From Vicinamibacteria bacterium (lineage in GTDB: Bacteria; Acidobacteriota; Vicinamibacteria; Marinacidobacterales; Marinacidobacteraceae), in NCBI GenBank assembly GCA_963668695.2, contig CAXXLQ010000004.1:2976001-3040000 (forward strand): 64,000 bases of DNA, given 5' to 3'. A program made the translations under genes and the position numbers. Below, piece by piece: positions 2,937-51,365 of the stretch. The notes below the pieces were generated by a model. It was not told the origin of the DNA. It did no database searches and saw only the letters and a list, made by a program, of their open reading frames with translations. Every line of letters begins with the position of its first letter. Positions within the stretch are counted from its first letter, which is position 1.

Positions 2937-3187
2937 CAGCCGGTGGTGGAACCCGGGTGAGCGCCGAGGCCGGTGAGGCCCAGTTCTCCCGGTGGGGCCA
3001 GTTCTCCCGGTGGGGGCCCGGCTGACAAGGCGCGTGAGGGAGGAGCCCCCACCGGGAGAACTGGCCCGGGTGTATTTCGACCGAAACGCAACGACGAACG
3101 GCGCGAAGCGACGCGGTTCAGCCGGGATGGATCGCCGGCCGAGCCCCCACCGGGAGAACTGGGCCGGCTGGGTTTCACCACAGGCTG
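2937..3187 (-). mobile_element. MITE family A copy, 251 bp = 179 + 4 x 18-bp module
   Basis: TIRs CAGCCGGTGGTGGAACCC / GGGTTTCACCACAGGCTG with a TTAG direct repeat on both sides. Confidence 0.85.
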
Positions 3188-3266
3188 TTAGGCTCAGCAG
3201 GAGGCTGCGAGAGTTCGACGGTGCGTCCCCCCGGCCGACGGGTTTCCGCTTCCTTCGGGTCGAAAG

Positions 3267-3487
3267 TAGTCTGTGGCGAGAGCCGGGCGGCATCGGCTCG
3301 CGGCGCGGAGCGCCGCGGGGGAGGGGTGTGGGGAGGGGTTTCCCCGCCCCACGAAAGACGATGGCGCGGATCGCGGAGCGATTCGCGGCATCAACCCGCG
3401 GGGAGAGCGTCCCGCACGCACAAACTCCGCGCGATCCGACGCGTCTGTCGTCGCGGGAACCGTGCGGGAGGCTCTCCCCACGGGTCA
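3267..3487. mobile_element. MITE-like element family B, copy 2 (221 bp, diverged)
   Basis: Colinear with 809-1029 and the same length; shares GGGGTGTGGGGAGGGGTTTCCCC-CCCCACGAAAGACG. Confidence 0.7.
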
Positions 3488-3796
3488 GTAGCCGACCACC
3501 CAACGGTGATCTGCCACGAAGCGGAAACCCGAAGCCAGCGGACGGAGGCCGAGTTCGGCGACCAGCGAGCGGGAGAAGGCCCGCCCCAGGATGGCGTTCA
3601 CGTCCTCGCCGGTGCTCTTCGCCTGCTCTTCGGCGGCGGTGGAGGCGAGATCGGTGACGAGCATCGTGCCTTCAACGGTTTCGCTCCCGGAGACGGCCTT
3701 CACCGACCAGGGCTGATGCTTGTCGGTGTCGGTGCGTTCGGCGATTTCCACGGCGCCCGTCCAGCGGGCGCCACGGCCTTCAAAGCTGACCTGCAT
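3485..3796 (-). CDS. Small hypothetical protein (103 aa)
   Basis: MQVSFEGRGARW...HRWVVGY. This is the unique, protein-like part of ORF 3485..4228; the upstream part is MITE read-through. Confidence 0.55.
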   Translation of the reverse strand: MQVSFEGRGARWTGAVEIAERTDTDKHQPWSVKAVSGSETVEGTMLVTDLASTAAEEQAKSTGEDVNAILGRAFSRSLVAELGLRPLASGFRFVADHRWVVGY

Positions 3797-3814
3797 GGGG
3801 TGGAATTGTATTAG

Positions 3815-4265
3815 CAACCGGTGGGCAAAGTGGCGTGAGCGCCGAGGCCGGCGAGGCCCAGTTCTCCCGGTGGGGGTCCGGCTGACAAGGCGCGTGAGGA
3901 AGGAGCCCCCACCGGGAGAACTGGCCCGGGTGTATTTCGACTGAAGCGCAACGATGAGCGACGCGAAGCGGCGCGGTGAACAGCCGGTGGCGGAACCCGC
4001 GTGAGCGCCGAGGCCGGTGAGACGCCCGGCTGACAAGGCGCGTGAGGAAGGAGCCCCCACCGGGAGAACTGGCCCGGGTGTATTTCGACCGAAACGCAAC
4101 GATGAGCGGCGCGAAGCGACGCGGTCAGCCGGGATGGATCGCCGGCCGAGCCCCCACCGGGAGAACTGGGCCGCGTGGGTTTCATCACGGGCTGTTTGGC
4201 CGGGATGAATCGCCGGCCGAGCCCCCACCGGGAGAACTGGGCCGCGTGACTTTGTTCACAGGCCG
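3815..4265 (-). mobile_element. Nested MITE family A pair (outer 3815-4265, inner 3981-4194)
   Basis: The outer copy is interrupted at about 3980 by a complete second copy. Outer net length 233 = 179 + 3 x 18; inner 214. Confidence 0.8.
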
Positions 4266-4267
4266 CT

Positions 4268-5606: not shown

Positions 5607-5736
5607 CCGGCGATGTCGCTGCGCGCCGCTCATCGTTGCGTTTCGGTCGAAATACACCCGGTATTCCTCCCTCACGCGCCTTGTCGGCCAGGCGCCTCAC
5701 CGACCTCGGCGCTCACGCGGGTTTCACCACCGGCGG
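5607..5736 (+). mobile_element. Partial MITE family A copy (left end missing)
   Basis: CGTTGCGTTTCGGTCGAAATACACCCGGTATTCCTCCCTCACGCGCCTTGTC...GGGTTTCACCACCGGCGG followed by CTAA. Confidence 0.75.
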
Positions 5737-6610: not shown

Positions 6611-6789
6611 CAGCCTGTGAACAAAGTGACGCGGCGTTCGAGCGGCGATGCATCCCGGCTGAACCGCGTCGCTTCGCGTCGCTCATCGTTGCGCTTCGGT
6701 CGAAATACACTGGGTATTCCTTCCTTGCGCGCCTTGTCAGCCGGGCGCCTCACCGCTCTCGGCGCTCACGTCACTTCATCCACAGGCTA
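6611..6789 (+). mobile_element. MITE family A copy, 179 bp, no module
   Basis: CAGCCTGTGAACAAAGTGACG...CGTCACTTCATCCACAGGCTA; flanks TTAG/CTAG. Confidence 0.85.
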
Positions 6790-6792
6790 CTA

Positions 6793-23676: not shown

Positions 23677-23712
23677 GGTAGCGACCGGGGCGCGCGCTAC
23701 GATGGACCTGAG

Positions 23713-23882
23713 CAGCCTGCAATCAAGACCGCACGGTGTTCGAACGGTGATGCATCCCGGCTGAGTCGCTTCGCTCTGCGTTGCGATCCGGTCGGAATAC
23801 AGCGGGTATTCCACCCAAATCGCGCCTTGTCAGCCGGGCGCCTGACCGTTCTCGGCGCTCGCGCCGTCGTATCCACCGGCTG
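23713..23882 (+). mobile_element. Diverged MITE family A copy (170 bp)
   Basis: CAGCCTGC...GATGCATCCCGGCTGA...CGCGCCTTGTCAGCCGGGCGCCT...ATCCACCGGCTG followed by CTAG. Confidence 0.75.
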
Positions 23883-23903
23883 CTAGCCAGGAGGCGAGAG
23901 CGA

Positions 23904-28762: not shown

Positions 28763-28941
28763 CAGCCTGTGGACAAAGTCACGCCGCGTTCGACCGGCGA
28801 TCCATCCCGGCTGAACCGCGCCGCGATGCGTCGCTCATCGTTGCGCTTCGGTCGAAATACACTCGGTATTCCTCCCTCGCGCGCCTTGTCAGCCGGGCGC
28901 CTCACCGGTCTCTGCACTGACGTCACTTTATCCACAGGCTG
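28763..28941 (+). mobile_element. MITE family A copy, 179 bp, no module
   Basis: CAGCCTGTGGACAAAGTCACG...CGTCACTTTATCCACAGGCTG with a CTAG direct repeat on both sides. Confidence 0.88.
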
Positions 28942-31278: not shown

Positions 31279-31416
31279 TGGGGTACCTCCTGATGGCGGC
31301 GCACAGGCCCAGCCCCAAATCCCGGGGAGGGTGGCGACCCGTAAGGAATCGTAATGCATCGACCGGGCGTTCCCCGGCCGCCGGAGTGCGGGCTGCGCCC
31401 AGGCTACGGCCCGGAC

Positions 31417-32163: not shown

Positions 32164-32239
32164 GAGGGCGGAACGCTCCAAGGGGGATGGGCCGGGAGGC
32201 CAGCGCAAGGGAAGACGCTCGGTGCGTCGATCGGCCGAG

Positions 32240-32269
32240 ATTCTATATATTGAAATCGGTTTTCAATAT
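32240..32269 (-). promoter_or_regulatory. AT-rich palindromic operator (Fur-box-like) next to a -10 box upstream of the spondin genes
   Basis: Perfect ATATTGAAA-N5-TTTCAATAT at 32247-32269; TAGAAT on the minus strand at 32240-32245. Confidence 0.65.
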
Positions 32270-32287
32270 CAGACTAGAACAGCTTCC

Positions 32288-34039
32288 TCATGACAGTGCA
32301 TCCGTCACCGCGACTGCGGTGCCCGTACGGACCGGATCCACTCCGGGCACGAAGGAAATTCCATCGCTCCCCTGCTTCCGGAGGATCCCGCTGGCCCGCC
32401 CGAAGTGTCCGGTGAGGGCGGTCTCCTGTCGTACCAACACCTCGTGACCGCGCTTTTCCAGTCCGGCAGCTACCGCGTGGCAATTGAGAGTGCGGGCGTC
32501 AAGGGTGATGGGCCCGGTATCGGCGTGAAAGCCGGGGCCACCGACGGCCTCTTGGATCGGCGCTTTGCGGTCCACCAGCCGGGCGACCCCGATCGCGACC
32601 GCCGAAATGAGCCGTCGGCCGCCGGGCGAGCCCAGCACCGCCCACGGCGAGCCGTCGCGAAACAGGATTGCCGGCGCCGCCGCGTGGAGCGCCCGGCGTC
32701 CGGGGGCCGGAGAGATCCTCCGGCCCGGGCGGGGATCGAACCACATCATCCCGTTGTTCAGGGGATACCCGAGCCCGGGCACCGCGAAGGCCGAGCCGAA
32801 CCGCCCTCCGAGCGTTGCCGTGAGCGAGACCGCCATCCCGTCGGCATCCATGGCGTTCACGTGGGTCGTGCAGTCCGACGAGGGTCCCCCCGAGGGCGGA
32901 GGAGTCGCAAATGCCCCACCGCCGGGAGGGATGGGTCTCGCGGGCGTTCCGATGCGCGGGCCGTCTGAAGACATGCCGTTCCGCCGCGCCCGGAGGTACT
33001 CCGGGCCGAGGACGCCGGGCAGCGGCACGGGTGCGCTCTCCGGATCTCCGAGATAGGCGAAGCGGTCGGCAAAGGCCAGCCGCAGCGACTCCGCCGCCAG
33101 ATGGAAGAACAGAATCTCTGGTTCGACGGAGCCGGTCGGAGGTTCCACGGGAGGGAAGGCGTCCAGATGGGAGAGGGCGGCGGCGAGGGTGGGGCCCCCG
33201 GAGTTCGCCGGCAGGGTGGCCACCTCGGAGTCCCGATAGCCGAACCGGAGGGGCGAGACTTCGCGGACCGGGATCTGCCCGAAGTCGGATTCCTGGAGAA
33301 TCCCGCCGGCCCCGCCCACCGCTTCGGCGAGCCGCCGCGCCACGGATCCCCGATAGAAGGGCTCGGGGCCTTCGACAGCAAGGAGCCGCAGCGACTCGGC
33401 GAGGTCGGGATTTCGCAGGCGATCATCCTCGCCGAAGGGCACGAACGGACTCCCGTCCTCGCGCGTATAGAGCGCGAACGCCGCCGGGCACCGTTTCAGC
33501 CGGCGGTAACCGGCCGCCGCGTGCACTGCGAACACCCAGTCGGGAACGAATCCTTCTTCGGCGAGGCGGATCGCCGGTTCGGCTACCGCCTCGAAGGAGA
33601 GCCTTCCGAAGCGGCGGTGCAATTCGAAGAGAACCGCGGGAGCCGTCGGGACCAGCACGCTGAGCGGCCCGGTCTCCGCCAGGTCCCCTCGCGTCGGGGG
33701 AAACCCGTAGAGCCCTCCGCCCACACCCGGCAACGGATCGAACATGTCCTCGCGGGTGTGGGCCGGACAACGCGCACTGCCGTCCAGCGCGACCGTCGAA
33801 GTGTTCGCCGGGTCGAAAACGACCGCGTAGGCGGTGCCGCCGAGGCCGTTCATCGCCGGCTCGACGACCCCGGCGGCGAGTCCGGCGGCCACCGCGGCAT
33901 CCGCGGCGTTCCCGCCCGCCGCGAGAATCTCGCCACCGGCACGGGCGGCGCCCGAGGTCATCGCGGTTACGGCGCCGCGGTTGCCGGCCACCCGCGAGCG
34001 CCCGGGCAGGGGGACCTGTTCGATCAGCGAGGTGGTCAT
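32288..34039 (-). CDS. ggt: Gamma-glutamyltransferase family protein
   Basis: GGNAADAAVA, VVEP.MNGLGG, catalytic TTH, FGS, LNNGM.WF, GSPGG. Confidence 0.9.
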   Translation of the reverse strand: MTTSLIEQVPLPGRSRVAGNRGAVTAMTSGAARAGGEILAAGGNAADAAVAAGLAAGVVEPAMNGLGGTAYAVVFDPANTSTVALDGSARCPAHTREDMFDPLPGVGGGLYGFPPTRGDLAETGPLSVLVPTAPAVLFELHRRFGRLSFEAVAEPAIRLAEEGFVPDWVFAVHAAAGYRRLKRCPAAFALYTREDGSPFVPFGEDDRLRNPDLAESLRLLAVEGPEPFYRGSVARRLAEAVGGAGGILQESDFGQIPVREVSPLRFGYRDSEVATLPANSGGPTLAAALSHLDAFPPVEPPTGSVEPEILFFHLAAESLRLAFADRFAYLGDPESAPVPLPGVLGPEYLRARRNGMSSDGPRIGTPARPIPPGGGAFATPPPSGGPSSDCTTHVNAMDADGMAVSLTATLGGRFGSAFAVPGLGYPLNNGMMWFDPRPGRRISPAPGRRALHAAAPAILFRDGSPWAVLGSPGGRRLISAVAIGVARLVDRKAPIQEAVGGPGFHADTGPITLDARTLNCHAVAAGLEKRGHEVLVRQETALTGHFGRASGILRKQGSDGISFVPGVDPVRTGTAVAVTDALS

Positions 34040-34045
34040 CCCGCT

Positions 34046-35074
34046 TCAGTCGGCGAGTAACGACGGGTCCGCGTTCCCGCCACAGAGGGGAGTGAGGATG
34101 TCGCGGCCCCGGAACCGATCGGGATGTTCGAGGAGCGCCGCGATCCCCGCGGCGCCGGCAGGCTCCACCACGAGTCCGAGGGTCCGATGGAGCAGGCGCA
34201 CCGCGTCACGAAGGGCTTCCTCGCTGACCTCGACGACCTCGTCAACCACCTGGCGCATGAGGGGAACCGCCTCCGGAACCGGAACGCGGACGGCGATTCC
34301 GTCCGCGATGGTCGCGGGTGCGACCTCCGCGGGGGACGGGTCCCCCGACAGGAAGGCATGCCGCATGACAGGCGCTTTGCGCGCCACCACGCCGACCACG
34401 ATCATTTCCGGAGCGGCGTGACGGATCCAGAGCCCCATCCCGCCAATGAGCGCCCCGTTTCCGATCGGAATCACGGCGGTGTCGGCCAAGACCCCCGCCT
34501 CCAGACACTCGAGCGCGATGGTGCCGGCTCCCTCGGTGATCTCCGGCTCCCGGCCGTCCTCCACGAACTCGGCGCCCTGGCTCCTGGCGAACTCGAGGGC
34601 TGCCTCCTTCGCGGCGTCGAAGTCCTCGCCGGTGAGACGGACGTCGGCGCCCAGGCTGCGCATTGCTGTGACCTTGTCGGGATTTGCGTGGAGGGAGGAG
34701 AACACCGTGAGCGGAATTCCCGACCGCCGCGCGGCCCACGCAAGCCCTTGTCCGAAGTTGCCCGCCGATCCGGTGACCCAACCAGGGCTGCCGGGGGGCA
34801 GGCCGCGCAGCCGGGCCGCGGCCTCCGGTCCCCGGCGGGCGCCGAACCAGCACGCGCCACGCGCCTTGAAGCTGCGGATCGGGTTGATGCATTCCACCTT
34901 GACGGTGACCCGGCAGCCGGTGGCCGCTCCCAGCGGGTCGGAGGCAAACATCGGGGTGTCCCGGAACTCGGGGGGGATGGCGGTCCGGGCGGCTTCGACC
35001 CCTTGCGGGGACGGTTCTGACGGCACGCCGGGGATGGTAAGCCGCGGGTCCGGGGTCTCGACCGTCGAATACAC
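34046..35074 (-). CDS. PLP-dependent threonine/serine dehydratase family enzyme
   Basis: NPIRSFKARGA, SAGNFGQG, PIGNGALIGG, TIADGIAV, VEPAGA, CGGN. Confidence 0.9.
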   Translation of the reverse strand: MYSTVETPDPRLTIPGVPSEPSPQGVEAARTAIPPEFRDTPMFASDPLGAATGCRVTVKVECINPIRSFKARGACWFGARRGPEAAARLRGLPPGSPGWVTGSAGNFGQGLAWAARRSGIPLTVFSSLHANPDKVTAMRSLGADVRLTGEDFDAAKEAALEFARSQGAEFVEDGREPEITEGAGTIALECLEAGVLADTAVIPIGNGALIGGMGLWIRHAAPEMIVVGVVARKAPVMRHAFLSGDPSPAEVAPATIADGIAVRVPVPEAVPLMRQVVDEVVEVSEEALRDAVRLLHRTLGLVVEPAGAAGIAALLEHPDRFRGRDILTPLCGGNADPSLLAD

Positions 35075-39127: not shown

Positions 39128-39145
39128 CGTCCGATCCGGCGTTAA

Positions 39146-39360
39146 CAGCCTGTGGCGAAACCCATGCGGCCCAGTTCTCCCGGTGGGGGCTCGCCCGGCG
39201 ATGCATCCCGGCTGAATCACTCCGCTTCGCTTCGTTCCGCGTTGCGTTTCGGTCGAAATACACTCGGTATTCCTCCCTCACGCGCCTTGTCAGCCGGGCG
39301 CCTCGCCCCACCGGGAGAACTGGCCGGGCTCGGCGCTCACCTCGGTTCCACCACAGGCTG
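39146..39360 (+). mobile_element. MITE family A copy, 215 bp = 179 + 2 x 18
   Basis: TTAA direct repeat on both sides; one module in each orientation. Confidence 0.88.
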
Positions 39361-39455
39361 TTAAGGACAGGCGCCGGATGCCCGGCGTACATCCACCGGG
39401 CGCTACGGGCTGCGATTTTGCCGGGAGGCGAAGACTTCCCGAGGAGGACAAGAAG

Positions 39456-42332
39456 ATGATCTGGCGAACCTGGATCCGGAACGGCGGGCGCGGATGTTTA
39501 ACAGCCGGTGGCAGAACCCAGGCGGCGTTCGACCGGCGATGCATCCCGCCTGAACCGCGCCGCTATGCGGCGCTCGGCGTTGCGCTTCGGTCGAAATACA
39601 CTCGGTATTCCTCCCTCACGCGCCTTGTCAGTCGCGCGCCTCACCGCTCTCGGCGCTCACCCGGGTTCCACCACAGGCTGTTAACAGCCTGTGGCAAAAC
39701 CCACGCGGCCCAGTTCTCCCGGTGGGGGCTCGACGGGCGATGCATCCCGGCTGAACCGCCCCGCTTCGCGGGGCTCTGCGTTGCGCTTCGGTCGAAATAC
39801 ACCCGGGCCAGTTCTCCCGGTGGGGGCTCCTCCCTCACGCGCCTTGTCAGCCGGGCGCCTCGCCCGTCTCGGCGCTCACGTGGGCTTCACCAAAGGCTGT
39901 TCACGGGGATCCTGGCGGCGGGCGTCGCGACCGCCGGGCCCAGCGCGGCGAGCGCCCAGTCCGAAACCGTCCTCATTCGCGCGCGGACGATCCACACCGT
40001 CACCAGCGGAACCCTTCACGAGGGCGAGATCCTGATCCGGAACGGGATCATCGAGGCGGTCGGCCCGTCCGTGGATGTTCCCGCCGACGCCCGCGTGTAC
40101 GAAGCCCAAGTGGTGATCCCGGGCCTGATCGACGCGCACGCGCACCTCGCCCTGGACCGTTCCGGCCGCTCGCGCATCCCCGGCCCGGTGACCGCCGAAT
40201 GGAAAGCCGTGGAGCACCTGGAGCTGTCGGATCCCATGATCCAGGTGGCGCTCTCCGGAGGCGTGACGTCGCTGGTCACGCGCCCGGGCAGCGGTGTCAT
40301 TTCCAGTGGGCAGTCGGTCGCGCTCAAGTTGAAGCGCATTCCAGGTCCGGAGATGATCCTCAAGCCCTATGTGGACCTGAAGATGGCCGTGCGCCCGCTG
40401 ATCAACCTGCGGCCAGGCGAGACGCCGCAGACGGTGATGGGGTGGTACGCCGCCGCCGACGAGTACTTCCGCCGCGCACAAGCCTATGTGCGAGAGCAGG
40501 AAGCCCGCGCAGCCGGAGCCGGAGCCGGACCGGCGCGTGACGAGCGCCTGGAGGCCTTCGCGGCCGTGATCCGGGGGGAGGTCATGGTCCACGCGCACGC
40601 GCACTATCCGAGCGAGGTGATGATGGTGCTGCGCCTGGCGCGCAAGTACGGCTTCTTCGACCGCTTGGCCCTCGCGCACGCGGAGGAGATCTTCCCGCTC
40701 ACCGAGCTGCTCGCCGGAACCAACATCGTCCCGGTCATCGGTCCGATGATGATCGTCCAGTATTTCAACGATCCAGAGCCCCTGAATCTGCTGAAGGAAC
40801 TCCTGGACGCAGGCGTGCACGCCAGCATCCAGACCGACATGTCGAACCAGCACTTCAAGGACTTCCGCGAGTACGGGGCGTTTCTGGCGCGCCACGGCCT
40901 CACTGACGAACAGGCGCTCGAGGTAATGACAATCAACGGAGCGCGCGCGATGATGCTCGACCACCGGGTGGGCAGCATCGAAGTCGGAAAGGACGCGGAC
41001 CTGGTGCTGCTCGACGGGCATTTCCTCGATCTGACCGCCGACCGGGTGGAGCGCGTGTTCGTGGACGGGCGGCTCGAGTACGAGCGCGACCGCGTGCTCC
41101 AGCCCGAACGACCCCGCGCCGTGGGGCCGTTTACCCCGGTGATCGGGGCGATCACTCCGGACGACGAGGCCTTCGCCATCACGGGCGCGCATGTGTTCAC
41201 CGTGAGCAGCGGCGCAATACACAACGCCACCCTGGTAGTCGAGGACGGCCGGTTCACCCGGGTGGAGGCGGACGCCGCTCCGCCCGCGGGGATGGCGGTC
41301 ATGGACGTAGGGGGCAGGGTGGTCATGCCGGGAACGGTGATCGCGCGCGCTTTTCCCAACGACTGGATCGGCGACCTCAAGTGGCAGGTGCAAAACGACG
41401 AGACCACCGCGCCGGTGGTGCCGGAGATGAACGCCCTGTACGCCGTGGACCCATGGTTTCCGTCGTACCGGGTGAACACGACGATCGGAGTGACCGCGAT
41501 CCACGTCACGCCCGGCACGCGCAATCTGGTGGGCGGCAACGGCGTCGTGGTGAAAACGCCTGGCCTCGACTTCGAGAAGATGGTGCGCCGCGAGCCCGCC
41601 AGCATGGTGTTCGCCCTCACCGCCTCGGCGCTCAGGGAGTGGACGGACGAGGCCGGGGCGCCGCTGACGGTCGAAAGCGCCTCGGCGATGGTCAGAAAGA
41701 CGCTGGACGCCGCACGCAGGTACGCGGAGGCGGAGGAGCCCCAGGAGTACGACGCGCGCCTCGAAGCGCTCCTGCCGCTACTCCGGCGAGAGGTGCCGGC
41801 GATGGTTCATGCGGATCGCGTGGCCGAGATCGAAGAGGCGCTGAGCCTCGCGGAGGACTACGGCCTGAGGCTCGTGATCACCGGCGGAGTGTCGGCGCAC
41901 CGACTGGCCGACCGGCTCGCGGCGGCCGGCGCGGGAGTCATTCTGGGCAACTCCGGGAGCTACGCGTCGGACATCCGCGGGGGTGGTGAGGGCTGGAGCG
42001 TGGAGGGGCCCGCCATCCTGAACCGGGCCGGCGTCAAGGTGGCGTTTTTCGGTCCGGGCGCCTCGCGGCGCGCTTCGCCCATCGGGCGGCTGGGCGGTGA
42101 GCCGATCCTCAACGCGGCGTGGGCCTTCCGCAACGGCGTCCCGGAGGTGGACGCGCTGAGGATGGCGACGCTGCATGCCGCCGAGCTGCTCGACTCGGGC
42201 GATCGGATCGGAAGCATCGAACCGGGCAAGGACGCGGATTTCGTCATTCTGGAAGGGCATCCGTTCGACTACCGGGTGGTGCCGGGGTGGGTGTTCGTGG
42301 ACGGGAGATTGGAGGTGGGCGGTCCTCAGTAA
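39456..42332 (+). CDS. Secreted two-domain amidohydrolase with two in-frame MITE insertions in the signal peptide
   Basis: GAGGAGG RBS then ATG 39456; PGLIDAHAH, GVTS, VHAH, GSIEVGKDADLV; second domain ends GSIEPGKDADFV..GHPF. Confidence 0.85.
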   Translation: MIWRTWIRNGGRGCLTAGGRTQAAFDRRCIPPEPRRYAALGVALRSKYTRYSSLTRLVSRAPHRSRRSPGFHHRLLTACGKTHAAQFSRWGLDGRCIPAEPPRFAGLCVALRSKYTRASSPGGGSSLTRLVSRAPRPSRRSRGLHQRLFTGILAAGVATAGPSAASAQSETVLIRARTIHTVTSGTLHEGEILIRNGIIEAVGPSVDVPADARVYEAQVVIPGLIDAHAHLALDRSGRSRIPGPVTAEWKAVEHLELSDPMIQVALSGGVTSLVTRPGSGVISSGQSVALKLKRIPGPEMILKPYVDLKMAVRPLINLRPGETPQTVMGWYAAADEYFRRAQAYVREQEARAAGAGAGPARDERLEAFAAVIRGEVMVHAHAHYPSEVMMVLRLARKYGFFDRLALAHAEEIFPLTELLAGTNIVPVIGPMMIVQYFNDPEPLNLLKELLDAGVHASIQTDMSNQHFKDFREYGAFLARHGLTDEQALEVMTINGARAMMLDHRVGSIEVGKDADLVLLDGHFLDLTADRVERVFVDGRLEYERDRVLQPERPRAVGPFTPVIGAITPDDEAFAITGAHVFTVSSGAIHNATLVVEDGRFTRVEADAAPPAGMAVMDVGGRVVMPGTVIARAFPNDWIGDLKWQVQNDETTAPVVPEMNALYAVDPWFPSYRVNTTIGVTAIHVTPGTRNLVGGNGVVVKTPGLDFEKMVRREPASMVFALTASALREWTDEAGAPLTVESASAMVRKTLDAARRYAEAEEPQEYDARLEALLPLLRREVPAMVHADRVAEIEEALSLAEDYGLRLVITGGVSAHRLADRLAAAGAGVILGNSGSYASDIRGGGEGWSVEGPAILNRAGVKVAFFGPGASRRASPIGRLGGEPILNAAWAFRNGVPEVDALRMATLHAAELLDSGDRIGSIEPGKDADFVILEGHPFDYRVVPGWVFVDGRLEVGGPQ
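39502..39899 (+). mobile_element. Two tandem MITE family A copies (39502-39680, 179 bp; 39685-39899, 215 bp)
   Basis: Arrangement TTAA-[copy]-TTAA-[copy]-TTCA. Confidence 0.9.
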
Positions 42333-42548
42333 CAGCCTGTGGTGGAACCCGGGTGAGCGCCGAGAACGGCCAGTTCTCCCGGTGGGGGCGAGACGCCCGG
42401 CTGACAAGGCGCGTGAGGGAGGAATACCCAGTGTATTTCGACCGAAACGCAATGCAGAGCGCCGCAAAGTGGCGCGGTTCAGGCGGGATGCATCGCCGCT
42501 CGAGCCCCCACCGGGAGAACTGGGCCGCCTGGGTTTCACCACAGGCTA
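42333..42548 (-). mobile_element. MITE family A copy, 216 bp, 2 modules
   Basis: Begins directly after the amidohydrolase TAA; CAGCCTGTGGTGGAACCC...GGGTTTCACCACAGGCTA. Confidence 0.85.
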
Positions 42549-44132: not shown

Positions 44133-46160
44133 TCAGTTCGTGGTGGGATGCGTCCGGTACTTGTCGAACCAAGCCACGATGTTGGCGATCTTCGCCATCA
44201 ACTGGCTCGGGCGGCGGCTCATGTCGTGAGACGCGCCGGGCAGCCGGACCACGGCTGTGTCGATCCCGCGGAACTTGAGGGCGTGAAACAGTTGGTACGA
44301 CTCGGATAGCGGCGTCCGGAGATCCTCTTCTCCGGTGACGATCAGGGTCGGCGTCTTCACGTTGCCGGCCAGGGAGAGCGGCGAGAACTTCCAGTAGGGC
44401 TCCGGGTTCTCCCAGGGGAGGCCCTCGTAGCGGCTGAAGTAGTAGCCGTACCAGTTGTCGGCGGTGAGCGTCTTACTGATCCAGTTGACGACCGGTTTCT
44501 GGGCGGCGGCAGCGCGGAAGCGGTCCGTCTTCCCGACGATCCACGCGGTCATGATCCCGCCGGCGCTGCCGCCGGTCACGAAGAGGTTGTCCTCGTCGAC
44601 GTACCCGCGGGCAATCACCGCGTCCACTCCCGACATGAGGTCGTCATAGTCGTTGCCCGGGTAATTGCGGTACAGCAGGTCCCCGAACTCCTCGCCGTAG
44701 CTCGTGCTGCCACGGGGGTTTGCATATAGGACGACGTACCCGGCGGCGGCGAGCAACTGCATCTCCGCGGAGAAGCGGTCGCCGTAGTTGGAGATCGGCC
44801 CGCCGTGGATCTCGAGAATCAGCGGGTACCGGCGCCCCGGATCGAAGTCGGGCGGTTTGACGATCCAGCCCTGGACCGCGCGGCCGTCGAAGGATGAATC
44901 CCACCAGATCTCCTCGACTTCGCCGAGGTTCCTGCCGGCGAGCAGATCCTCGTTGAGCGAGGTTAGCTGCCGCACCGCGTCACCGGGCATGCCCACCGCG
45001 AGCTCGCCCGGCTGATCCGGGCGGCTCTGGTTGAACGCGAAGGCGCCGGTGTTCGCGACCGAGAACGACCCGCCGCCGTAGGGGCGGCCGTAGGAGGCGC
45101 CGCCAAGGTCCGCCCCCAGAACCGCGAGCTCGCCGTCCAGCGTCACGAAGGCGACCTTCGAGTTGCCCTCGTCGTCATACTGGAAGTAGAGGCGGTGCCC
45201 GTCCGCCGCCCACACCGGATTCGAGACACTCCGGTCCAGGCCGGTCGTGACGACGCGCTGGCCGCTCCCGTCCAGATTCATGACCTGGAGTCGGCTGACC
45301 TGGTAGGTCCGCACCCGGTCCTCGTAGCCCACGAACGCGATCTGCTGCCCGTCGGGAGAGACGGCGGGGCTCTGGTCCGGCCCGTTCCGGTCGGTCAGCG
45401 CGCGGATCTCCCCGCCGGCGACCGGCGCAATGTAGAGATCCGAGTTGCGGTAGTCGTGCACCCAGTCGGGGTTGCGGTTCGAGGAGAAGACGAGGTGCCG
45501 GCCGTCCGGCGTCCAGGCGGCGGGACTCGAGTGTTGAAAGTCGCCCGAAGTGACCTGCACCGGCGTACCGCCTTCGACCGGGAGAACGAAGAGGTGGCTG
45601 TAACCGAAGTCGAGATAGCCCACCCCGTCCTGGCGGTTCTTGAAGCGGTCCTCCATGATCGGAGGATCAGCCCAGTCGGCGCCGGGGGGCGGTTTCGGGG
45701 GTGGGGCGAGTTGGGGCGGGGGATAGGGCACCAGCATGTTGAACGCGAGGTGGCGGCCCTCGGGCGACCAGCGGATATTTCTCGGCGATTCAAGAAGCTG
45801 GGTGAGGGTGGCCGTCTCGCCGGTATCCATCCAGCGCAGGTGGATCTGGCCGTCCGCGGTGAAGGCGATGCGGGTCCCGTCCGGGGACCAACGAGGTGAC
45901 GAGCCGGCGCTTAGCCGGCGGTGGCCGGTGCCGTCGGCGTTCACGATCCACAGTTCGGGCCGCTGGCGGTCGCGCATGATGTCCATCGAGGTCCGGACAT
46001 AGATGACCTGGCTGCCGTCCGGGGAAATCTGCGGATCCGCCGCGAATTCGAGTTGGAAGACGTCCATGGGCTGGAACGACTCCTGGGCCCCGGAGGAAGC
46101 GGGGCCGATGACGAGGACCAGCGCGGCGGCAAGAAGGTTCGTTCGGTGGATTCCGGGCAT
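44133..46160 (-). CDS. S9 family (acylaminoacyl) peptidase, secreted
   Basis: PD40 beta-propeller repeats (SPDG), IHGGP, NPRGSTSYG, nucleophile GGSAGG, DLRTP, H. Confidence 0.93.
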   Translation of the reverse strand: MPGIHRTNLLAAALVLVIGPASSGAQESFQPMDVFQLEFAADPQISPDGSQVIYVRTSMDIMRDRQRPELWIVNADGTGHRRLSAGSSPRWSPDGTRIAFTADGQIHLRWMDTGETATLTQLLESPRNIRWSPEGRHLAFNMLVPYPPPQLAPPPKPPPGADWADPPIMEDRFKNRQDGVGYLDFGYSHLFVLPVEGGTPVQVTSGDFQHSSPAAWTPDGRHLVFSSNRNPDWVHDYRNSDLYIAPVAGGEIRALTDRNGPDQSPAVSPDGQQIAFVGYEDRVRTYQVSRLQVMNLDGSGQRVVTTGLDRSVSNPVWAADGHRLYFQYDDEGNSKVAFVTLDGELAVLGADLGGASYGRPYGGGSFSVANTGAFAFNQSRPDQPGELAVGMPGDAVRQLTSLNEDLLAGRNLGEVEEIWWDSSFDGRAVQGWIVKPPDFDPGRRYPLILEIHGGPISNYGDRFSAEMQLLAAAGYVVLYANPRGSTSYGEEFGDLLYRNYPGNDYDDLMSGVDAVIARGYVDEDNLFVTGGSAGGIMTAWIVGKTDRFRAAAAQKPVVNWISKTLTADNWYGYYFSRYEGLPWENPEPYWKFSPLSLAGNVKTPTLIVTGEEDLRTPLSESYQLFHALKFRGIDTAVVRLPGASHDMSRRPSQLMAKIANIVAWFDKYRTHPTTN

Positions 46161-46172
46161 GTTTCGACTCTC

Positions 46173-46209
46173 GGGTTCGGGTTCGGTTGGGTTTGGGTTT
46201 GGGTTTGGG
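46173..46209. repeat. Imperfect hexamer microsatellite (GGGTTC/GGGTTT)
   Basis: GGGTTCGGGTTCGGTTGGGTTTGGGTTTGGGTTTGGG between the two S9 genes. Confidence 0.75.
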
Positions 46210-46244
46210 GGAGAAGCTCTGCAACTTACCAGAGGCTTGCGGGA

Positions 46245-48320
46245 TCAGTTGCCCGCCGAAGTCCGGTACTTCTCGAACCAGGCGACCTGGTTGGCGACCT
46301 TCGCGATCAACTGGCTCGGGCGCCGGCTCATGTCATGGAACGCCCCGGGCAGCCGGATCACCGCCGTGTCGATGCCGCGGAACTTGAGGGCGTGGAACAA
46401 CTGGTACGACTCCGACAGGGGTGTCCGCAGGTCCGCCGCCCCGGTGATGATCATGGTCGGCGTACTCACGTTCCCGACCAGGGAGAGCGGCGAGAACTTC
46501 CAGTAGGGCTCCGGATCCTCCCAGGGGAGGCCCTCGTAGCGGCTACCGAAGTAGTTGAACCAGTTGTCCGCGGTGAGCGTCTTGCTGATCCAGTTGATGA
46601 CCGGCTTTTCGGAGACGGCGGCGCGGAAGCGGTCGGTCTTCCCCACGATCCAGGCGGTCATGATCCCGCCAGCGCTACCGCCGGTCACGAAGAGGTTGGC
46701 CTCATCCACGTACCCGCGGGCGATCACCGCATCCACCCCGGACATGAGGTCGTCGTAGTCGTTGCCCGGGTAGTTGTGGTAGAGCAGATCCCCGAACTCC
46801 CCGCCGTAGCTCGTGCTGCCACGGGGGTTGGCGTACAGCACCACGTATCCGGCGGCGGCGAAGAGCTGCATCTCTGCCGAGAAGCGGTCGCCGTAGTGGG
46901 CGATCGGCCCGCCGTGGATTTCGAGGATGAACGGGTACCGGCGGGTCGGATCGAAGTCAGGCGGCTTCACGATCCAGCCCTGGACGGGGCGGCCATCGAA
47001 GGACGAATCCCACCAGATCTCCTCGACTTCGCCGAGGGTCCGCCGGCCGAGCAGGTCCTCGTTGAGCGAGGTGATCCGCCGCACCTCACCGCCGGGGGTC
47101 CCCACCGCGACCTCGCCCGGTTGATCCGGCCGTGTCTGGTTGAACGCGAAGCCGCCGCCGGCCGCAACCGAGAACGACCCGCTGCCGTAGGGAAGGCCGT
47201 AGGACGACCCCCCGACGCCCTGCCCGAGAACCGCGACCTCGCCGTCCAGGGTGGTGAAGGCGACCTTGGTGTTGCCCTCGTCGTCGTAACGGAAGTAGAT
47301 GCGGTGCCCGTCGGCGGCCCACACCGGATTCGAGACGCTTCGGTCCAGGCCGGTGGTGACGACCCGCCGGCCGCTCCCGTCCAGGTTCATCACCTCGAGA
47401 CGGCTGACCTGGTAGGTCCGCACCCGGTCGTCGTAACCCACGAATGCGATCCGCTCTCCGTCAGGAGACACCGCCGGGCTGTGGTCCGGCCCGTTCCGGC
47501 TGGTCAGCGCCCGGATCTCTCCGCCCGCGACCGGCGCGAGGTAGAGCTCCGAGTTGCGGTAGTCGTGCTCCCAGTCGGGGTTGCGGTTCGACGAGAAGAC
47601 GAGGTGAAGGCCGTCGGGGGTCCAGGCGGCGGGCCCGGAATGCTGGAAGTCGCCGGTGGTGACCTGAAACGGCGTGCCGCCTTCGACCGGGAGCACGAAG
47701 ATGTGGTCATAGCCGAAGTCGAGATAGCCGACTCCGTCCTGCTTGCTCTTGAAGCGGTCTTCCATGATCGGGGGATCGGCCCACTCCGCGCCCGGAGGCG
47801 GTTGCGGCGGGGCGACGAGCTGCGGAGGCGGGTAGGGCACCAGCATGTTGAAAGCGAGGTGGCGGCCGTCCGGCGACCAGCGGATGTTTCTTGGCGATTC
47901 CAGGAGCTGGGTGAGGGTGGCCGTTTCGCCGGTGTCCATCCAGCGCAAGTGGATCTGGCCCTCCGCTATGTAGGCGACCTGGGTCCCGTCCGGCGACCAG
48001 CGCGGGGCGGCGCCGGCGCTCAAGCGGCGATGACCGGACCCGTCAGCGTTCACGATCCACAGCTCGGTGCGCTGCTGGTCGCGCATGATGTCCATCGAGG
48101 TGCGGACGTAGACGACCTGGCTGCCACCCGGGGAAATCTGCGGATCCACCGCGAATTCGAGCTGGAAGACGTCCGTTGGCTCGAACCGCGCCGAATCGGC
48201 GTTTGCGGCCGTTTGGGCCTCGGCGTGGACCGGGAAGCTGCTGAGCGCCAACGCCGCGGTGAGCGCGAGGGCGCCCGCCGGGGCGAGGGGAATCAGATTC
48301 GTTCGAGTGATTCTGGACAT
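46245..48320 (-). CDS. S9 family peptidase, tandem paralog
   Basis: Same motifs; colinear with and highly similar to 44133-46160. Confidence 0.93.
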   Translation of the reverse strand: MSRITRTNLIPLAPAGALALTAALALSSFPVHAEAQTAANADSARFEPTDVFQLEFAVDPQISPGGSQVVYVRTSMDIMRDQQRTELWIVNADGSGHRRLSAGAAPRWSPDGTQVAYIAEGQIHLRWMDTGETATLTQLLESPRNIRWSPDGRHLAFNMLVPYPPPQLVAPPQPPPGAEWADPPIMEDRFKSKQDGVGYLDFGYDHIFVLPVEGGTPFQVTTGDFQHSGPAAWTPDGLHLVFSSNRNPDWEHDYRNSELYLAPVAGGEIRALTSRNGPDHSPAVSPDGERIAFVGYDDRVRTYQVSRLEVMNLDGSGRRVVTTGLDRSVSNPVWAADGHRIYFRYDDEGNTKVAFTTLDGEVAVLGQGVGGSSYGLPYGSGSFSVAAGGGFAFNQTRPDQPGEVAVGTPGGEVRRITSLNEDLLGRRTLGEVEEIWWDSSFDGRPVQGWIVKPPDFDPTRRYPFILEIHGGPIAHYGDRFSAEMQLFAAAGYVVLYANPRGSTSYGGEFGDLLYHNYPGNDYDDLMSGVDAVIARGYVDEANLFVTGGSAGGIMTAWIVGKTDRFRAAVSEKPVINWISKTLTADNWFNYFGSRYEGLPWEDPEPYWKFSPLSLVGNVSTPTMIITGAADLRTPLSESYQLFHALKFRGIDTAVIRLPGAFHDMSRRPSQLIAKVANQVAWFEKYRTSAGN

Positions 48321-48425
48321 TGTGCGACTCTTCGATTCAGGGTGAGGGGCAGGCTCTCCAAGTACGAAAGCCCGACCTACGCATCATGACGGAGTGGCGG
48401 CACTATGGCCATGCGCACCCGCTAG

Positions 48426-48657
48426 CAGCCTGTGGTGGAACCCGGGTGAGCGCCGAGGCCGCCAGTTCTCCCGGTGGGGGGAGGCGCCCGGCTGACAAGG
48501 CGCGTGAGGGAGGAGCCCCCACCGGGAGAACTGGCCCGGGTGTATTTCGACCGAAACGCAACGACGAGCGGCGCGAAGCGACGCGGTTCAGCCGGGATGG
48601 ATCGCCGGCCGAGCCCCCACCGGGAGAACTGGGCCGCGCGGGTTTCATTACAGGCTG
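48426..48657 (-). mobile_element. MITE family A copy, 232 bp, 3 modules; composite remnant continues to about 48805
   Basis: CTAG then CAGCCTGTGGTGGAACCC...GGGTTTCATTACAGGCTG; downstream remnant GCGGGATGCATCGCCGGCCG and another TIR-like end GGGTTTCACCACCGGCGG-CTAA. Confidence 0.82.
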
Positions 48658-48817
48658 TTTGGGCGGGATGCATCGCCGGCCGTTTCCGGAGCGGGGCGCA
48701 AGCACCGCGTAGACCCCGGAGCGGAAAGGACGGGGGGCGGGACCACCCGACCCCCATCCCTTCTTGGCTCGGGAACGCCGCCGGGGTTTCACCACCGGCG
48801 GCTAAACTCCGTCGCCC

Positions 48818-50239
48818 GTGATCCGCGTTCCGGTCCTCCGCTGGGGAAAGCCCTACCGCAGTCTGGAGACGACGACCGTTTCCCACTTCCTCACCGGCGA
48901 GCCGGTTGCCGAGGTGGATCAGGTCACGCCGGGAATCGTGAAGCGCGACCTGAGGCGGGCCGGAATGGCGCGTGCGGCGCTCCGGGATTTCCCGATCCGG
49001 GATCTGCTGGCCCGCGTAAAGGAGGCCGCCCGCCTCTACATGGAGGCAGAACTGCCGCTCGGCGACGCCACCCAGAGCCCGCAGGAGTTCGTCCGCTCCC
49101 AGTCGGGGACCACTGGCCTCCCGGAATCCATGTGCCGCGCCAACATGGAAAAGAACCGCTTCGTGCTCGAGCGGATGGACCAGGTACTGGACGCCCTGAC
49201 CCGCGGCCTGGACCTCGACATCCTTTCGACCGGACACGGGATGGAGGAGCGGGGCGTCCCGGTGTCCTACCAGGCGCAGACGCCGGTGCTCGCCTGCGTC
49301 CTGCCGTCCAACTCGCCGGGCGTTCACACGCTCTGGCTTCCGGTGATTCCCCTGCAGATCGGTCTCGTGCTCAAGCCGGGTCCCGAAGAGCCCTGGACCC
49401 CGTACCGGATGGCCGAGGCCTTCTTCGCCGCCGGGATTCCCCGGGAAGCGATCGCCGTCTATCCCGGTGGCGCCGAGGTAGGGGCGGCGGTGGTCGAAGC
49501 GGCGCCGCGAACGCTGATCTTCGGCAGCCGGGCGACAGTGGAGCGCTACCGGAGCAATCCGTCGGTGCGCGTCCACGGCCCCGGGTTCTCGAAGATTCTG
49601 CTCGGTGACGACTTGGTGGATCGCTGGGAAGAGCATCTGGACGTGCTCTTCGAGAGCGTTTTCCTGAACAGCGGACGCAGTTGCATCTCCTGTTCCGGCA
49701 TTTGGGCGTCCCGGCATACCGAGGCGATCGCCGCGGCGCTCGCGGAGCGGCTCGCCTCGTTCCGGCCGCGTCCTCCCGACGATCCCGAGAGCGCACTCGC
49801 CGCCTTTACGGTTCCCGGAATGGCCGAAACGATTGACCGGGACATCGAACAGCGCCTGGCTGGCGGCGGGGCCAGCGATCTCACCGCCACGCTCCGCGAC
49901 GGCCCGCGGCTCGTGCAGGAGGGACGCGCTTCCTGGCTGCTTCCCACGGTCCTGCATTGCGAGAGCCCACAAGTGCCGGCCGCGAACGTGGAATACATGT
50001 TTCCGTTCGTCTCGGTGGTCCGCTGTCCGCAGGAAGAAATGATCGGACGGATCGGAGACACCCTGGTGGCCACCGCAATCACCGACGACGTGAGTTTTCG
50101 GACGGATCTGCTGGAGACGACCTCGATCGATCGCCTGAATTTCGGACCGATCCCGACAACCCGGCTCAATTGGCTCCAGCCGCACGAGGGCAACATCGTG
50201 GATGTGCTCTACCGGGCCCGGGCATTCCAGAGCGCCTGA
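48818..50239 (+). CDS. Aldehyde dehydrogenase-superfamily / acyl-CoA reductase (LuxC/EhpG-like)
   Basis: LPSNSPGVH, LKPG, IFG, HGPGFSK, NSGRSCISCS (catalytic Cys), EYMFPF, HEGN. Confidence 0.85.
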   Translation: MIRVPVLRWGKPYRSLETTTVSHFLTGEPVAEVDQVTPGIVKRDLRRAGMARAALRDFPIRDLLARVKEAARLYMEAELPLGDATQSPQEFVRSQSGTTGLPESMCRANMEKNRFVLERMDQVLDALTRGLDLDILSTGHGMEERGVPVSYQAQTPVLACVLPSNSPGVHTLWLPVIPLQIGLVLKPGPEEPWTPYRMAEAFFAAGIPREAIAVYPGGAEVGAAVVEAAPRTLIFGSRATVERYRSNPSVRVHGPGFSKILLGDDLVDRWEEHLDVLFESVFLNSGRSCISCSGIWASRHTEAIAAALAERLASFRPRPPDDPESALAAFTVPGMAETIDRDIEQRLAGGGASDLTATLRDGPRLVQEGRASWLLPTVLHCESPQVPAANVEYMFPFVSVVRCPQEEMIGRIGDTLVATAITDDVSFRTDLLETTSIDRLNFGPIPTTRLNWLQPHEGNIVDVLYRARAFQSA

Positions 50240-50244
50240 GAGGC

Positions 50245-50949
50245 GTGGATACGAGCGAAGGACGCGCGGGGTCCGTGACCGGGGGCCTCCAGGTATCGGG
50301 GCTCGTCAAGGACTATCCGGCGCCTTCCGGGCTGCTGCGCGTGCTGGACGGAGTGGATCTGGAGCTGCGGCCCGGCGAAGCCGCCTCGGTGATGGGCGCC
50401 TCGGGCTGCGGCAAGAGCACCCTCCTCTTCGTGCTCGGCGCGATCGAGGCCCCCTCCGCCGGAGAAGTTCGGCTCGACGGAGTGGATCCCCACGAACTCG
50501 ACCCGGACGACCAGGCCGGCTTCCGGCGGGACCAGGTGGGTTTCGTGTTCCAGGATCACTGCCTCCTGCCGCAGTGCACGGCGCTCGAGAACGTGCTGGC
50601 GCCGACCCTTCCGGATCCGCGTCCGAACGACGCCGAGCGCGCCGCCGCCCTGCTCGACCGGGTGGGGCTGTCCGGCCGGCTGCGACACCTCCCGGCGGAG
50701 CTTTCCGGCGGCGAGAAACAGCGGGTGGCGATCGCCCGTGCCCTCGTGCGGGCGCCCCGTCTCCTGCTGTGCGACGAGCCGACCGGCAACCTGGACGGGG
50801 AATCTGCCGACGAGGTGGCGGCCCTGCTCCTGGAGGCGAGTGCGCTCGACGAGGGCCGGATCGTCGTCCTGGTCACTCACGACGCGGAGCTGGGAGGGCG
50901 TTTCCCGAAGCGTTTCCGGATGAGCCGGGGGCGCCTCACCGGCATTTAG
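50245..50949 (+). CDS. ABC transporter ATP-binding protein (LolD/MacB-like)
   Basis: [40 protein letters not shown]. Start is GTG 50245 or 50275. Confidence 0.92.
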
Positions 50950-51365
50950 CAGCCGGTGAACAGAGTCACGCGGCCCAGTTCTCCCGGTGGGGGCTCGGCC
51001 GGCGACGCATTCCGGCTGAAACGCTTTGCTTCGCATCGCTCATCGTTGCGCTTCGGTCGAAATACACTCGGGCCAGTTCTCCCGGTGGGGGCTCCTCCCT
51101 CGCGCGCCTTGTGAGCCGGGCGCCTCACCGGCATCGGCGCTAGCAGCCCGTGGTGAAACCCAAGCGGCGTTCGAGCGGCGATCCATCCCGCCTGAACCGC
51201 GCCGCTTTGCGGCGCTCTGCGTTGCGTTTCGGTCGAAATACACTCGGGCCAGTTCTCCCGGTGGGGGCTCCTCCCTCACGCGCCTTGTCAGCCGGGCGCC
51301 TCGCCGCTCTCGGCGCTCACCCGGGTTCCACCACAGGCTGCTAACGTCACTCTGTCCACAGACTG
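50950..51365 (+). mobile_element. Nested MITE family A pair (outer 50950-51365, inner 51144-51340)
   Basis: Inner copy 197 = 179 + 18, flanked by CTAG/CTAA; outer net 215 = 179 + 36, flanked by TTAG/CTAA. Confidence 0.87.

Follow-up and report, generated by a model that had tools for sequence, protein, structure and literature searches.

An 18-nucleotide non-palindromic module at set slots in a miniature inverted-repeat element and in hairpin repeats of a Vicinamibacteria genome

Introduction

The question raised by the stretch of DNA described here is how a word of 18 nucleotides (nt) can recur, identical to the letter, at set places inside repeats that themselves differ at many sites. The stretch, referred to below as the window, is 64,000 nt long and corresponds to C4:2976001-3040000 in the genome assembly of a Vicinamibacteria bacterium of the phylum Acidobacteriota (GCA_963668695.2, contig CAXXLQ010000004.1; designated G000). 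The assembly consists of four contigs, C1, C3 and C4 among these, with 4,095,246 bases, 67 % G+C and an estimated completeness of 91.7 %. The word, CCAGTTCTCCCGGTGGGG, occurs 21 times in the window as a module that is present or absent at fixed positions, termed slots, of a miniature inverted-repeat transposable element (MITE) designated family A.

The 18-mer is a discrete ultra-short interspersed repeat, a secondary module living inside other repeats, and is regarded, with slightly more confidence than doubt, as spreading by short-patch copying together with rare insertion. It occupies set slots in a 177-bp MITE bearing terminal inverted repeats and in GC-rich hairpins resembling repetitive extragenic palindromes (REPs), and only rarely unique DNA. 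Two processes are proposed. In the first, which would be frequent, filled and empty states would be copied between repeats over the module plus one to three adjacent letters, by very-short-tract ectopic conversion or by copy-choice, and combinatorial occupancy, switching in place and a uniform module would be its effects. The second would be rare, being demonstrated for one open reading frame (ORF) and probable for many slot types, and would consist of de novo insertion after GG or CCGG, with replacement of one to three target letters and no target duplication. As a side effect, deletions from one slot to another use modules as their crossover points.

Sequence and abundance of the module

An exact search recovered the 21 letter-identical copies reported in the initial annotation of the window (their positions are given with the host elements below) and found no window copy with one to three mismatches; the shuffle expectation is 0.00 exact copies and 0.19 copies at ≤3 mismatches. 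The genome-wide count that the annotation had proposed as a check gave 1288 exact copies, divided between 648 on the forward and 640 on the reverse strand, and 278, 65 and 48 further copies with one, two and three mismatches, respectively. Exact copies alone represent 0.57 % of all genomic bases (1288 x 18 out of 4,095,246), and a single variant, T6C, accounts for 156 of the near copies. The immediate flanks are also constrained, with G at a frequency of 0.92 at position -2, G at 0.87 at +1 and C at 0.87 at +2, so that the conserved unit is about GG-S-CCAGTTCTCCCGGTGGGG-GC.

The module is not palindromic and has no terminal inverted repeats, and when folded as single-stranded DNA in five contexts it gave no hairpin (z -0.15 to +1.36 relative to shuffles). 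A scan of the window against Rfam at gathering scores gave no family. Neither the 18-mer nor the name 'Marinacidobacterium' was present in the literature searched, subscription journals being outside the coverage, and a collection of viral contigs gave one exact match to the 18-mer in total.

The host element and its slots

Family A elements were located with an nhmmer profile made from one module-stripped copy of the MITE, which gave 771 matches in the genome (137,512 bases), 452 of them full length. The full-length matches form a ladder of 177, 195, 213, 231, 249, 267, 285, 303, 321 and 339 nt, and the steps of 18 first noticed among the window copies therefore hold genome-wide. After the modules were stripped, 372 of the 452 full copies measured 176-178 nt, and the number of modules per full element ranged from 0 to 7. 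The ends of the MITE, CAGCCTGTGGTG...CACCACAGGCTG, are terminal inverted repeats with the boundary TTA(G/A), and its insertions are polymorphic between species, with MITE-free sites in the related genomes G008 and G001. The host is an ordinary MITE.

Modules in the forward orientation of the element occupy slot S1, after core column 24 (184 modules), and slot S3, after column 104/105 (206 modules), together with the minor slots S1b, after column 40 (3 modules), and S5f, after column 144 (7 modules). In the reverse orientation they occupy S2, after column 57/58 (54 modules), S4, after column 133/135 (258 modules, arranged as 59 singles, 97 doubles and one run of five), and S5, after column 141/142 (134 modules), as well as the minor slots S2a, after column 52 (5 modules), and S2b, after column 68 (2 modules). 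Orientations are thus mixed, and tandem modules are confined to S4. The left, central and right-arm slots proposed in the initial annotation all exist, as S1, S3, S4 and S5, and S2 and the four minor slots are added to them. Inserts at S5 come in two lengths, 19 nt (114 cases) and 18 nt (35 cases), which accounts for the host lengths that had seemed off by one. As initially remarked, the module causes no target duplication: none was found at S1, at S3 or at the ORF site described below, and 1-3 target letters are replaced instead.

Family A matches contain 1060 of the 1288 exact copies (82 %); about 108 others lie in short left-arm fragments of the MITE and 120 elsewhere. The statement that every window copy sits inside a family A element holds for 20 of the 21; the remaining copy, at 4223, belongs to a left-arm fragment beyond the nhmmer match that ends at 4193.

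Modules vary less than the element that hosts them, though the contrast is smaller than it seems at first. Its initial description as invariant within a divergent element is upheld by the share of exact copies, which is 94-96 % in S1, S2 and S3 (76-77 % in S4 and S5, the home of the T6C variant) versus 67 % in the most uniform 18-column window of the MITE core, but in terms of rare variants the gap is only about 3-fold. Per-site deviation, with T6C set aside, is 0.33 % in modules, a figure biased somewhat downward by the gathering of modules at ≤2 mismatches, versus 1.0 % for rare alleles in the core and 2.56 % at 127 quiet columns. Core variation is mostly confined to about 50 common polymorphic columns.

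Two side observations concern the structure of the element. The left arm of the MITE, taken together with its S1 module, is repeated in tandem every 71 nt, for up to several units, both in the window (4194-4264) and genome-wide, where 106 same-strand module pairs are spaced by 71 nt. Certain pairs of core columns (15/16 with 161-168, 55 with 71, and 83 with 116) show strong covariation (r2 0.67-0.88) and are placed as stem partners; the folding of a whole MITE copy is not better than that of shuffles (z -0.14). Selection for pairing could account for the covariation, and so could linked alleles of subfamilies.

Slot states and their exchange

At the main slots, each state comes with its own adjacent letters. 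Core column 26 is C in 182 of 184 elements with S1 filled and T in 253 of 268 with S1 empty, while at S3 the filled form, G[18]GC, shows GGC in 200-204 of 206 copies and the empty form TAT in 242-244 of 246. At S4, column 134 is G in 290 of 295 empty slots, A in 56 of 59 singles and G again in all 98 doubles, among which 49 combine an exact with a T6C module and 44 consist of two exact modules. The S4 single-plus-A state is scattered over a tree of MITE cores that was built without the slot-adjacent columns, and has been gained or lost in place. Because fresh insertion would not recreate different letters for the single and double states of S4, existing module copies appear to act as templates through very short patch copying.

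Occupancy is combinatorial and almost unlinked to the MITE core. The 452 full elements show 54 occupancy patterns, with 30 of the 32 possible combinations of the five main slots present, and 110 of them carry no module at all. The state of a slot is tied to the adjacent 1-3 letters (Cramer's V 0.97-0.99 at S1 and S3) and to hardly anything further off: the mean r2 between slots and core single-nucleotide polymorphisms (SNPs) beyond 3 nt is 0.012-0.026, versus 0.034-0.122 between SNPs, and r2 between slots does not exceed 0.145. On the core tree, S1 requires 122 changes (mean of shuffled labels 143), S3 117 (149), S4 113 (130) and S5 100 (116). Ratios of observed to shuffled changes across the five slots are 0.69-0.87, and eight control SNPs of the core, each omitted from its own tree, gave 0.20-0.74. 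Occupancy is thus nearly random on the tree and more scattered than the SNP controls, and therefore restriction of the module to a single recent subclade is not seen.

Changes of state in place are visible where sequences can be aligned at a locus. Contig C1 is about 99.5 % identical to C4:304184-421223 and C3 is 97.6-99.7 % identical to C4:3505137-3538141; between C1 or C3 and C4 there are 729 mismatches in 144,910 aligned columns (0.5 %), and the module state differs at three repeat clusters. At one cluster an S4 double (exact plus T6C, GCCC) stands opposite an S4 single (GTCC), at another an S4 single (GGAC) opposite an empty slot (GGGC), and at the third S3 is filled versus the TAT form at two neighbouring elements. 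The in-place changes are always between common states, linked letters included. Module turnover is much faster than ordinary mutation.

Orthologous elements in other genomes give the same kind of comparison. The G001 orthologue of the element at window position 3816 has S5 filled with a T6C module and S4 empty, the reverse of G000, and a deletion in it joins the S3 and S1 modules. In G004 the orthologue of the element at 39686 shows S3 in the empty TAT form, filled in G000, and that of the element at 50951 has S4 filled, empty in G000. The G001 orthologue of the element at 2938 has unchanged occupancy and many core columns with other common family alleles. In the strain sampled by run X5 (Logan contigs), 123 nt replace window positions 39136-39906 and 17 nt replace 50946-51369; all four public runs compared consist of Logan contigs that end at MITEs and are uninformative on module presence or absence.

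According to a passive explanation, occupancy would be the mark of old MITE subfamilies, each amplified on its own, and variation among tandem copies would come from replication slippage only. Slot states that behave as discrete alleles with linked letters would fit this, as would the tandem copies at S4 (one, two and once five), which could slip, and an occupancy slightly less random than shuffled labels. The explanation is nevertheless judged very improbable, given that nearly all slot combinations exist, that the states are scattered more widely over the tree than the eight SNPs, that they change in place at orthologous loci, and that one module has entered a unique gene; the passage from single to double at S4, moreover, is not one slippage event because the linked letter differs. 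The initial view that the pattern is not passive decay from one ancestor is thus borne out.

As side observations on the two smaller contigs, C1 (144,504 bases) and C3 (31,195 bases) match parts of the main contig at 97.6-99.9 % identity. They are either separately assembled strain variants or recent large duplications, which fits the 'contamination' figure of 9.34 %. C1 also has blocks without a counterpart among the matches listed, for example 23173-34948 and 44623-58832.

Modules outside the MITE

Most of the 120 copies outside MITE sequence sit in an unrelated repeat, REP-like GC-rich hairpins such as CCGGTCTGAAGACCGG. The junction follows a rule, CCGG-T-N becoming CYGG[18]GC-N, on either arm and in several loop variants; the CTGAAG hairpin type has 62 empty and 30 filled sites and the GTGAAC type 43 empty and 10 filled. 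Slot S5 of the MITE obeys the same CCGG-T rule, and so does, in the genome G018 of a different genus, a module that lies inside a degenerate one. The hairpins themselves (CCGGT-N5-8-ACCGG) give 544 strand-wise matches genome-wide, for example beside C4:1199213-1199315 and C4:2198749, and often form, with a second hairpin (CGCGGCC..GGCCGCG), a paired unit of about 84 nt; none of the hairpins in the window carries a module.

One module lies in unique coding DNA, within a gene for an RND transporter of 1051 residues (PF00873, E 6e-241). It forms codons 418-423 (PHRENW), in frame, at a point where MdtB has a six-residue gap. Twelve orthologues (G002-G012, G020) lack exactly 18 nt at this site, while the nearest relative, G001 (98 % identity), has the insert. 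Compared with the empty site, CATCCCGC^GCGGGCTC, the filled one has 19 letters in the place of one and is 18 longer, and nothing is duplicated. A BLAST filter for modules with unique flanks flagged 4 of the 1288 copies, all resembling degenerate hairpin repeats, and missed the copy in the RND gene, possibly as its flanks match elsewhere too; open-frame length was useless as a proxy for coding context at 67 % G+C. The initial suggestion of a discrete unit that enters new places is in keeping with its presence in nine or more MITE slots, in the hairpins, in a copy of itself and in one ORF.

Twenty-one copies combine the left flank of one slot with the right flank of another: S1 with S3 (9 copies), S3 with S1 (1 copy), S5 with S2 (4 copies), S5 with S4 (2 copies) and S4 with S5 (5 copies), the left flank being named first. 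These non-cognate pairs match the S3-S1 deletion seen in G001.

G000 has 14 examples of a longer unit of 45-60 nt that starts CCCCACCGGGAGAAACCC[TC]CATGATCGGG... (among them those at C4:2362062 and C4:1461620). It shares the 14-mer TTCTCCCGGTGGGG with the module and occurs at the same kinds of junction, beside hairpins and MITE slots, and it may be a longer relative or source of the module. Its ends also explain a candidate that was rejected, namely a larger element ending in half-modules: the 14 ends 'GGGTTTCTCCCGGTGGGG' proved to belong to the 45-60-nt unit beside hairpins and not to an insertion sequence (IS). The one interrupted module, at C4:2454771 (locus L007), is split by an ordinary IS21 inserted after CCAGTTCTCCCG, with IstA (rve and Mu-transposase C domains) and IstB.

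Distribution across genomes

Of 31 related genomes, counting G000, 18 contain the exact 18-mer. It was found in 17 of the 18 other genomes of the family (f1), spanning three genera, with 4 to 631 copies versus 1288 in G000; within the genus, all 15 other genomes searched have it (6 to 631 copies), and in other genera of the family two of three genomes do (220 and 4 copies). It was absent from all 12 genomes of two sister families (f2 and f3). Fragmented assemblies probably undercount the copies. In G018, a two-mismatch variant with 105 copies is fixed at S1 of that genome's own MITE, and exact copies are new at new slots; the nested module of this genome sits at the CCGG^T of the degenerate one, and the 18-mer also occurs there in 44-nt arrays of hairpin plus module. 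Several of the public runs that contain the stretch are labelled as sponge metagenomes.

This distribution bears on the possibility of an adapter or assembly artefact, which the initial annotation had named as a refuting case and to which next to no credence is given here. The exact word recurs in related metagenome-assembled genomes from many separate assemblies, contigs of the public runs X10 and X5 include stretches of 15 to 19 nt with module-like letters, and the module stands in frame in a conserved gene of two genomes.

It also bears on the proposal that the word is a site selected by the host for binding of a nucleoid, regulatory or uptake protein, which purifying selection would keep exact and which would spread with the MITE. 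Exact conservation across genera and a variant rate below that of the core would be expected of such a site, and near-equal numbers on the two strands are compatible with a double-strand site. The proposal is considered improbable all the same: the module-free full MITEs, close to a quarter of them (110 of 452), and the differences between near-identical contigs would be unexpected for a needed site, the word is not palindromic and has no replichore polarity, and 82 % of its copies belong to one MITE family. Moreover, it arrives as an 18-nt insertion and not by point mutation, even in a coding loop, an unlikely setting for a binding role.

Proposed mechanism and enzyme searches

Among the mechanisms first suggested for the module (site-specific insertion, templating or conversion), templating or conversion fits best, given the linked letters and the switches in place, while the suggested association with a recombinase, an IS110- or IS200-type enzyme, a RAYT or a reverse transcriptase was not seen. 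Y1/RAYT transposases (PF01797) gave no match in the four contigs of G000, the control being positive in 6 of 14 genomes; RVT_1 gave none either, and the one GIY-YIG match (PF01541) fell within an open frame of 664 residues, with no small GIY-YIG gene at E ≤ 0.01, in searches that left out tyrosine and serine recombinases, TnpB and IS91. IS110 elements are known to target REP-like hairpins, and the only IS110-family transposase gene of the genome (C4:482399-482872) belongs to an element whose ends lie inside a family-B hairpin (..GGAGGTC | TATACCC ... AGAAGGTC | CGGCGTTCC) and not at a module. Templating from a quasi-palindrome within one element was considered and set aside, as the main slots are not mirror positions and most copies cannot be explained in this way.

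Several points weigh against short-patch copying with rare insertion. The mechanism is inferred from patterns only. Ordinary conversion should co-convert nearby SNPs, yet the mean r2 between slots and SNPs at 4-10 nt is 0.019, versus 0.122 between SNPs, so that either copying is limited to an unusually short patch or the process is a deterministic site-specific insertion with the mere look of templating. An identity of 18-23 nt is short for RecA-type recombination. The exact word shared across genera, together with the decayed S1 copy in G018, may indicate a trans-acting factor with sequence specificity. The haplotypes compared are those of C1 and C3, which may be strain variants or real duplications. 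Finally, the load of rare variants does not vary with module number (Spearman -0.03, p 0.56) and so does not indicate a direction of change, gain or loss.

Some of these points favour a different reading, in which the 18-20-nt non-palindromic unit is itself the mobile element, the smallest known, and is inserted after GG or CCGG with a fixed junction by a dedicated trans-acting enzyme. This is a tentative alternative and on present evidence rather unlikely. That 17 of the 18 other genomes of the family, across three genera, conserve the exact word would follow from it, as would the new exact copies at new slots in G018 while the old S1 copy decayed by two letters, the nesting of the module at its own CCGG^T, the T to [18]GC junction common to unrelated hosts, the one clean insertion in a unique gene and the very low linkage to SNPs 4-10 nt away; the existence of subfamilies (156 T6C copies, 105 of the G018 variant) is likewise as in transposon families. 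The module would then be a hyperparasite of MITEs and REP-like hairpins, and a sequence-specific activity that inserts it, and perhaps removes it, would be predicted to be conserved across Vicinamibacteria-type Acidobacteriota genera, a prediction that is doubtful to the same degree.

Evidence on the other side includes the lack of any Y1/RAYT, RVT_1 or small GIY-YIG match in G000, the position of the sole IS110 away from modules, and the finding of no element bounded by half-modules. The unit has no terminal inverted repeats, hairpin or target duplication. Hairpin-borne modules show no replichore strand bias of the kind associated with single-strand transposases (15/11 vs 17/9, Fisher p 0.78, with origin and terminus placed by GC skew alone). 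A fixed junction outcome does not explain why single and double states of S4 differ in their linked letters, and only one unique-DNA insertion was found among 1288 copies.

Comparison with known repeats

The nearest kind of described repeat is the modular MITE, and mosaic REP/BIME and dRS3/NTS-NIME repeats are also close; the module is no member of those families. REPs form imperfect palindromes, and the transposase that moves them is a single-copy Y1 enzyme. Like REP, BIME and REPIN sequences, the module is a short (20-40 nt in those families), very abundant and mostly intergenic word in mosaic clusters, in both orientations and in variable numbers: 1060 of its 1288 exact copies are in the MITE and one is confirmed inside a gene. 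Unlike the REP/REPIN-RAYT system, it folds no better than shuffles and its genome has no PF01797 match, and unlike the single-strand elements of the IS200/IS605 group it has no replication orientation bias. Rickettsia palindromic elements are palindromes of about 100-150 nt that can sit in frame inside functioning protein genes. The six-residue PHRENW insert of the RND transporter resembles them in being in frame; the module differs in its 18 nt, its lack of a palindrome and the one gene case found among 1288 copies.

The BOX elements of Streptococcus are modular MITEs of the form boxA-(boxB)n-boxC whose box number varies between strains at a locus, with further box types in other streptococci (PMC3049150). 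Family A shares with BOX the terminal inverted repeats, the small size and a length that varies with an internal box that is absent or multiple (PMC3049150). It differs in that boxB is one tandem array at one place, whereas the 18-nt module has linked junction letters, uses nine or more slots in both orientations and also lives in one ORF and in a hairpin repeat unrelated to the MITE. Given these modular BOX elements (PMC3049150) and the mosaic BIME and NIME repeats, the initial statement that no described system resembles this one was too strong.

In Neisseria, dRS3/NTS is a word of about 20-28 nt with hundreds of copies that bounds variable segments and is a proposed recombination point; NTS forms a hairpin, is conserved across a family and is tied to a dedicated small protein, the SsnA nuclease, whose ssn gene is flanked by NTS (PMC11893778). 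The module likewise is a short, abundant, family-conserved word with a possible role in recombination, but unlike NTS/dRS3-Ssn, the module has no hairpin and the only GIY-YIG match is in a 664-residue frame. The DNA uptake sequence (DUS) is a repeated uptake word with 34 % of its occurrences in coding sequences (PMC11893778). Like DUS and the uptake signal sequence (USS), the module is a short, exact, family-conserved word, at about one per 3 kb and equal on both strands; uptake words, however, arise by substitution in alignable sequence, whereas the module is an 18-nt insertion with 82 % of its copies in one MITE family. What sets this case apart is the combination of 18 nt without a palindrome, many slots in two unrelated hosts and no duplication, and the known partner enzymes were not found.

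The module represents a layer of repeat dynamics below the level of the MITE, in which an 18-letter word is exchanged among hundreds of repeats faster than point mutations accumulate. If very-short-patch copying is the cause, this would be an unusually clean natural system in which to measure ectopic conversion tracts in bacteria; if an enzyme drives it, the module would be the smallest mobile DNA unit and would imply a new sequence-specific DNA-handling activity, and a mobile word of this kind would occasionally add six residues to proteins. Modules shift intergenic lengths in steps of 18, mediate slot-to-slot deletions and can add six residues to a protein, which is relevant to strain typing, assembly and annotation of Acidobacteriota associated with sponge metagenomes.

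Elements and modules in the window

All elements below were delimited with nhmmer and all modules by exact match; strands are given in brackets. The full-length element at 2938..3186 (-; core columns 1-177) carries four modules, namely the S4 tandem pair at 2980..2997 and 2998..3015 (both +), the second followed by GCCCGG, the central S3 module at 3047..3064 (-) and the left-arm S1 module at 3145..3162 (-). A partial element at 3816..3977 (-; core columns 52-177) has two, an S4 single with the linked GTCC flank at 3858..3875 (+) and an S3 module at 3907..3924 (-). It is followed by a full-length element at 3982..4193 (-) with S3 filled at 4055..4072 (-), S1 filled at 4152..4169 (-), and S4 and S5 empty. 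The module at 4223..4240 (-) belongs to the extra left-arm fragment and was recognized as a 71-nt 'arm plus module' unit by its spacing.

Four elements without a module lie between these and the next filled ones: a fragment at 5615..5734 (+; core columns 57-176), copies of 177 nt at 6612..6788 (+) and 28764..28940 (+), both without an 18-mer match, and a copy of 168 nt at 23714..23881 (+). The full-length element at 39147..39359 (+) has S1 filled at 39171..39188 (+), S5 filled at 39306..39323 (-) and S3 in the empty TAT form. Near it are a 177-nt element with all slots empty at 39503..39679 (+) and an element at 39686..39898 (+) with S1 filled at 39710..39727 (+) and S3 at 39808..39825 (+).

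The element at 42334..42547 (-) has S5 filled at 42370..42387 (+), S1 at 42506..42523 (-) and S3 in the empty form, and the one at 48427..48656 (-) has three filled slots, S5 at 48462..48479 (+; junction off by one), S3 at 48517..48534 (-) and S1 at 48615..48632 (-). The element at 50951..51141 (+; core columns 1-155) is interrupted by the next MITE and has S1 filled at 50975..50992 (+), S3 at 51073..51090 (+) and S4 empty. The MITE nested in it, at 51145..51339 (+), has S3 filled at 51249..51266 (+) and S1 in the empty form (GCGGCGTTCG). At 50951-51339, a CTA(G/A) site in the right end of one MITE has taken up a second one; among relatives, the outer MITE is uninterrupted in G004, and no MITE is present in G001 or the run X5 strain.

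A further repeat, ..GGGGAGGGGTGTGGGGAGGGGTTTCCCCGCCCCACGAAAGACGATGGCGCGGATCGCGGAGCGAT.., was observed at window positions 3280-3400. It recurs elsewhere in the genome (C4:1639306 and C4:2603390) and in G001 and G008, with a module beside it at two places.

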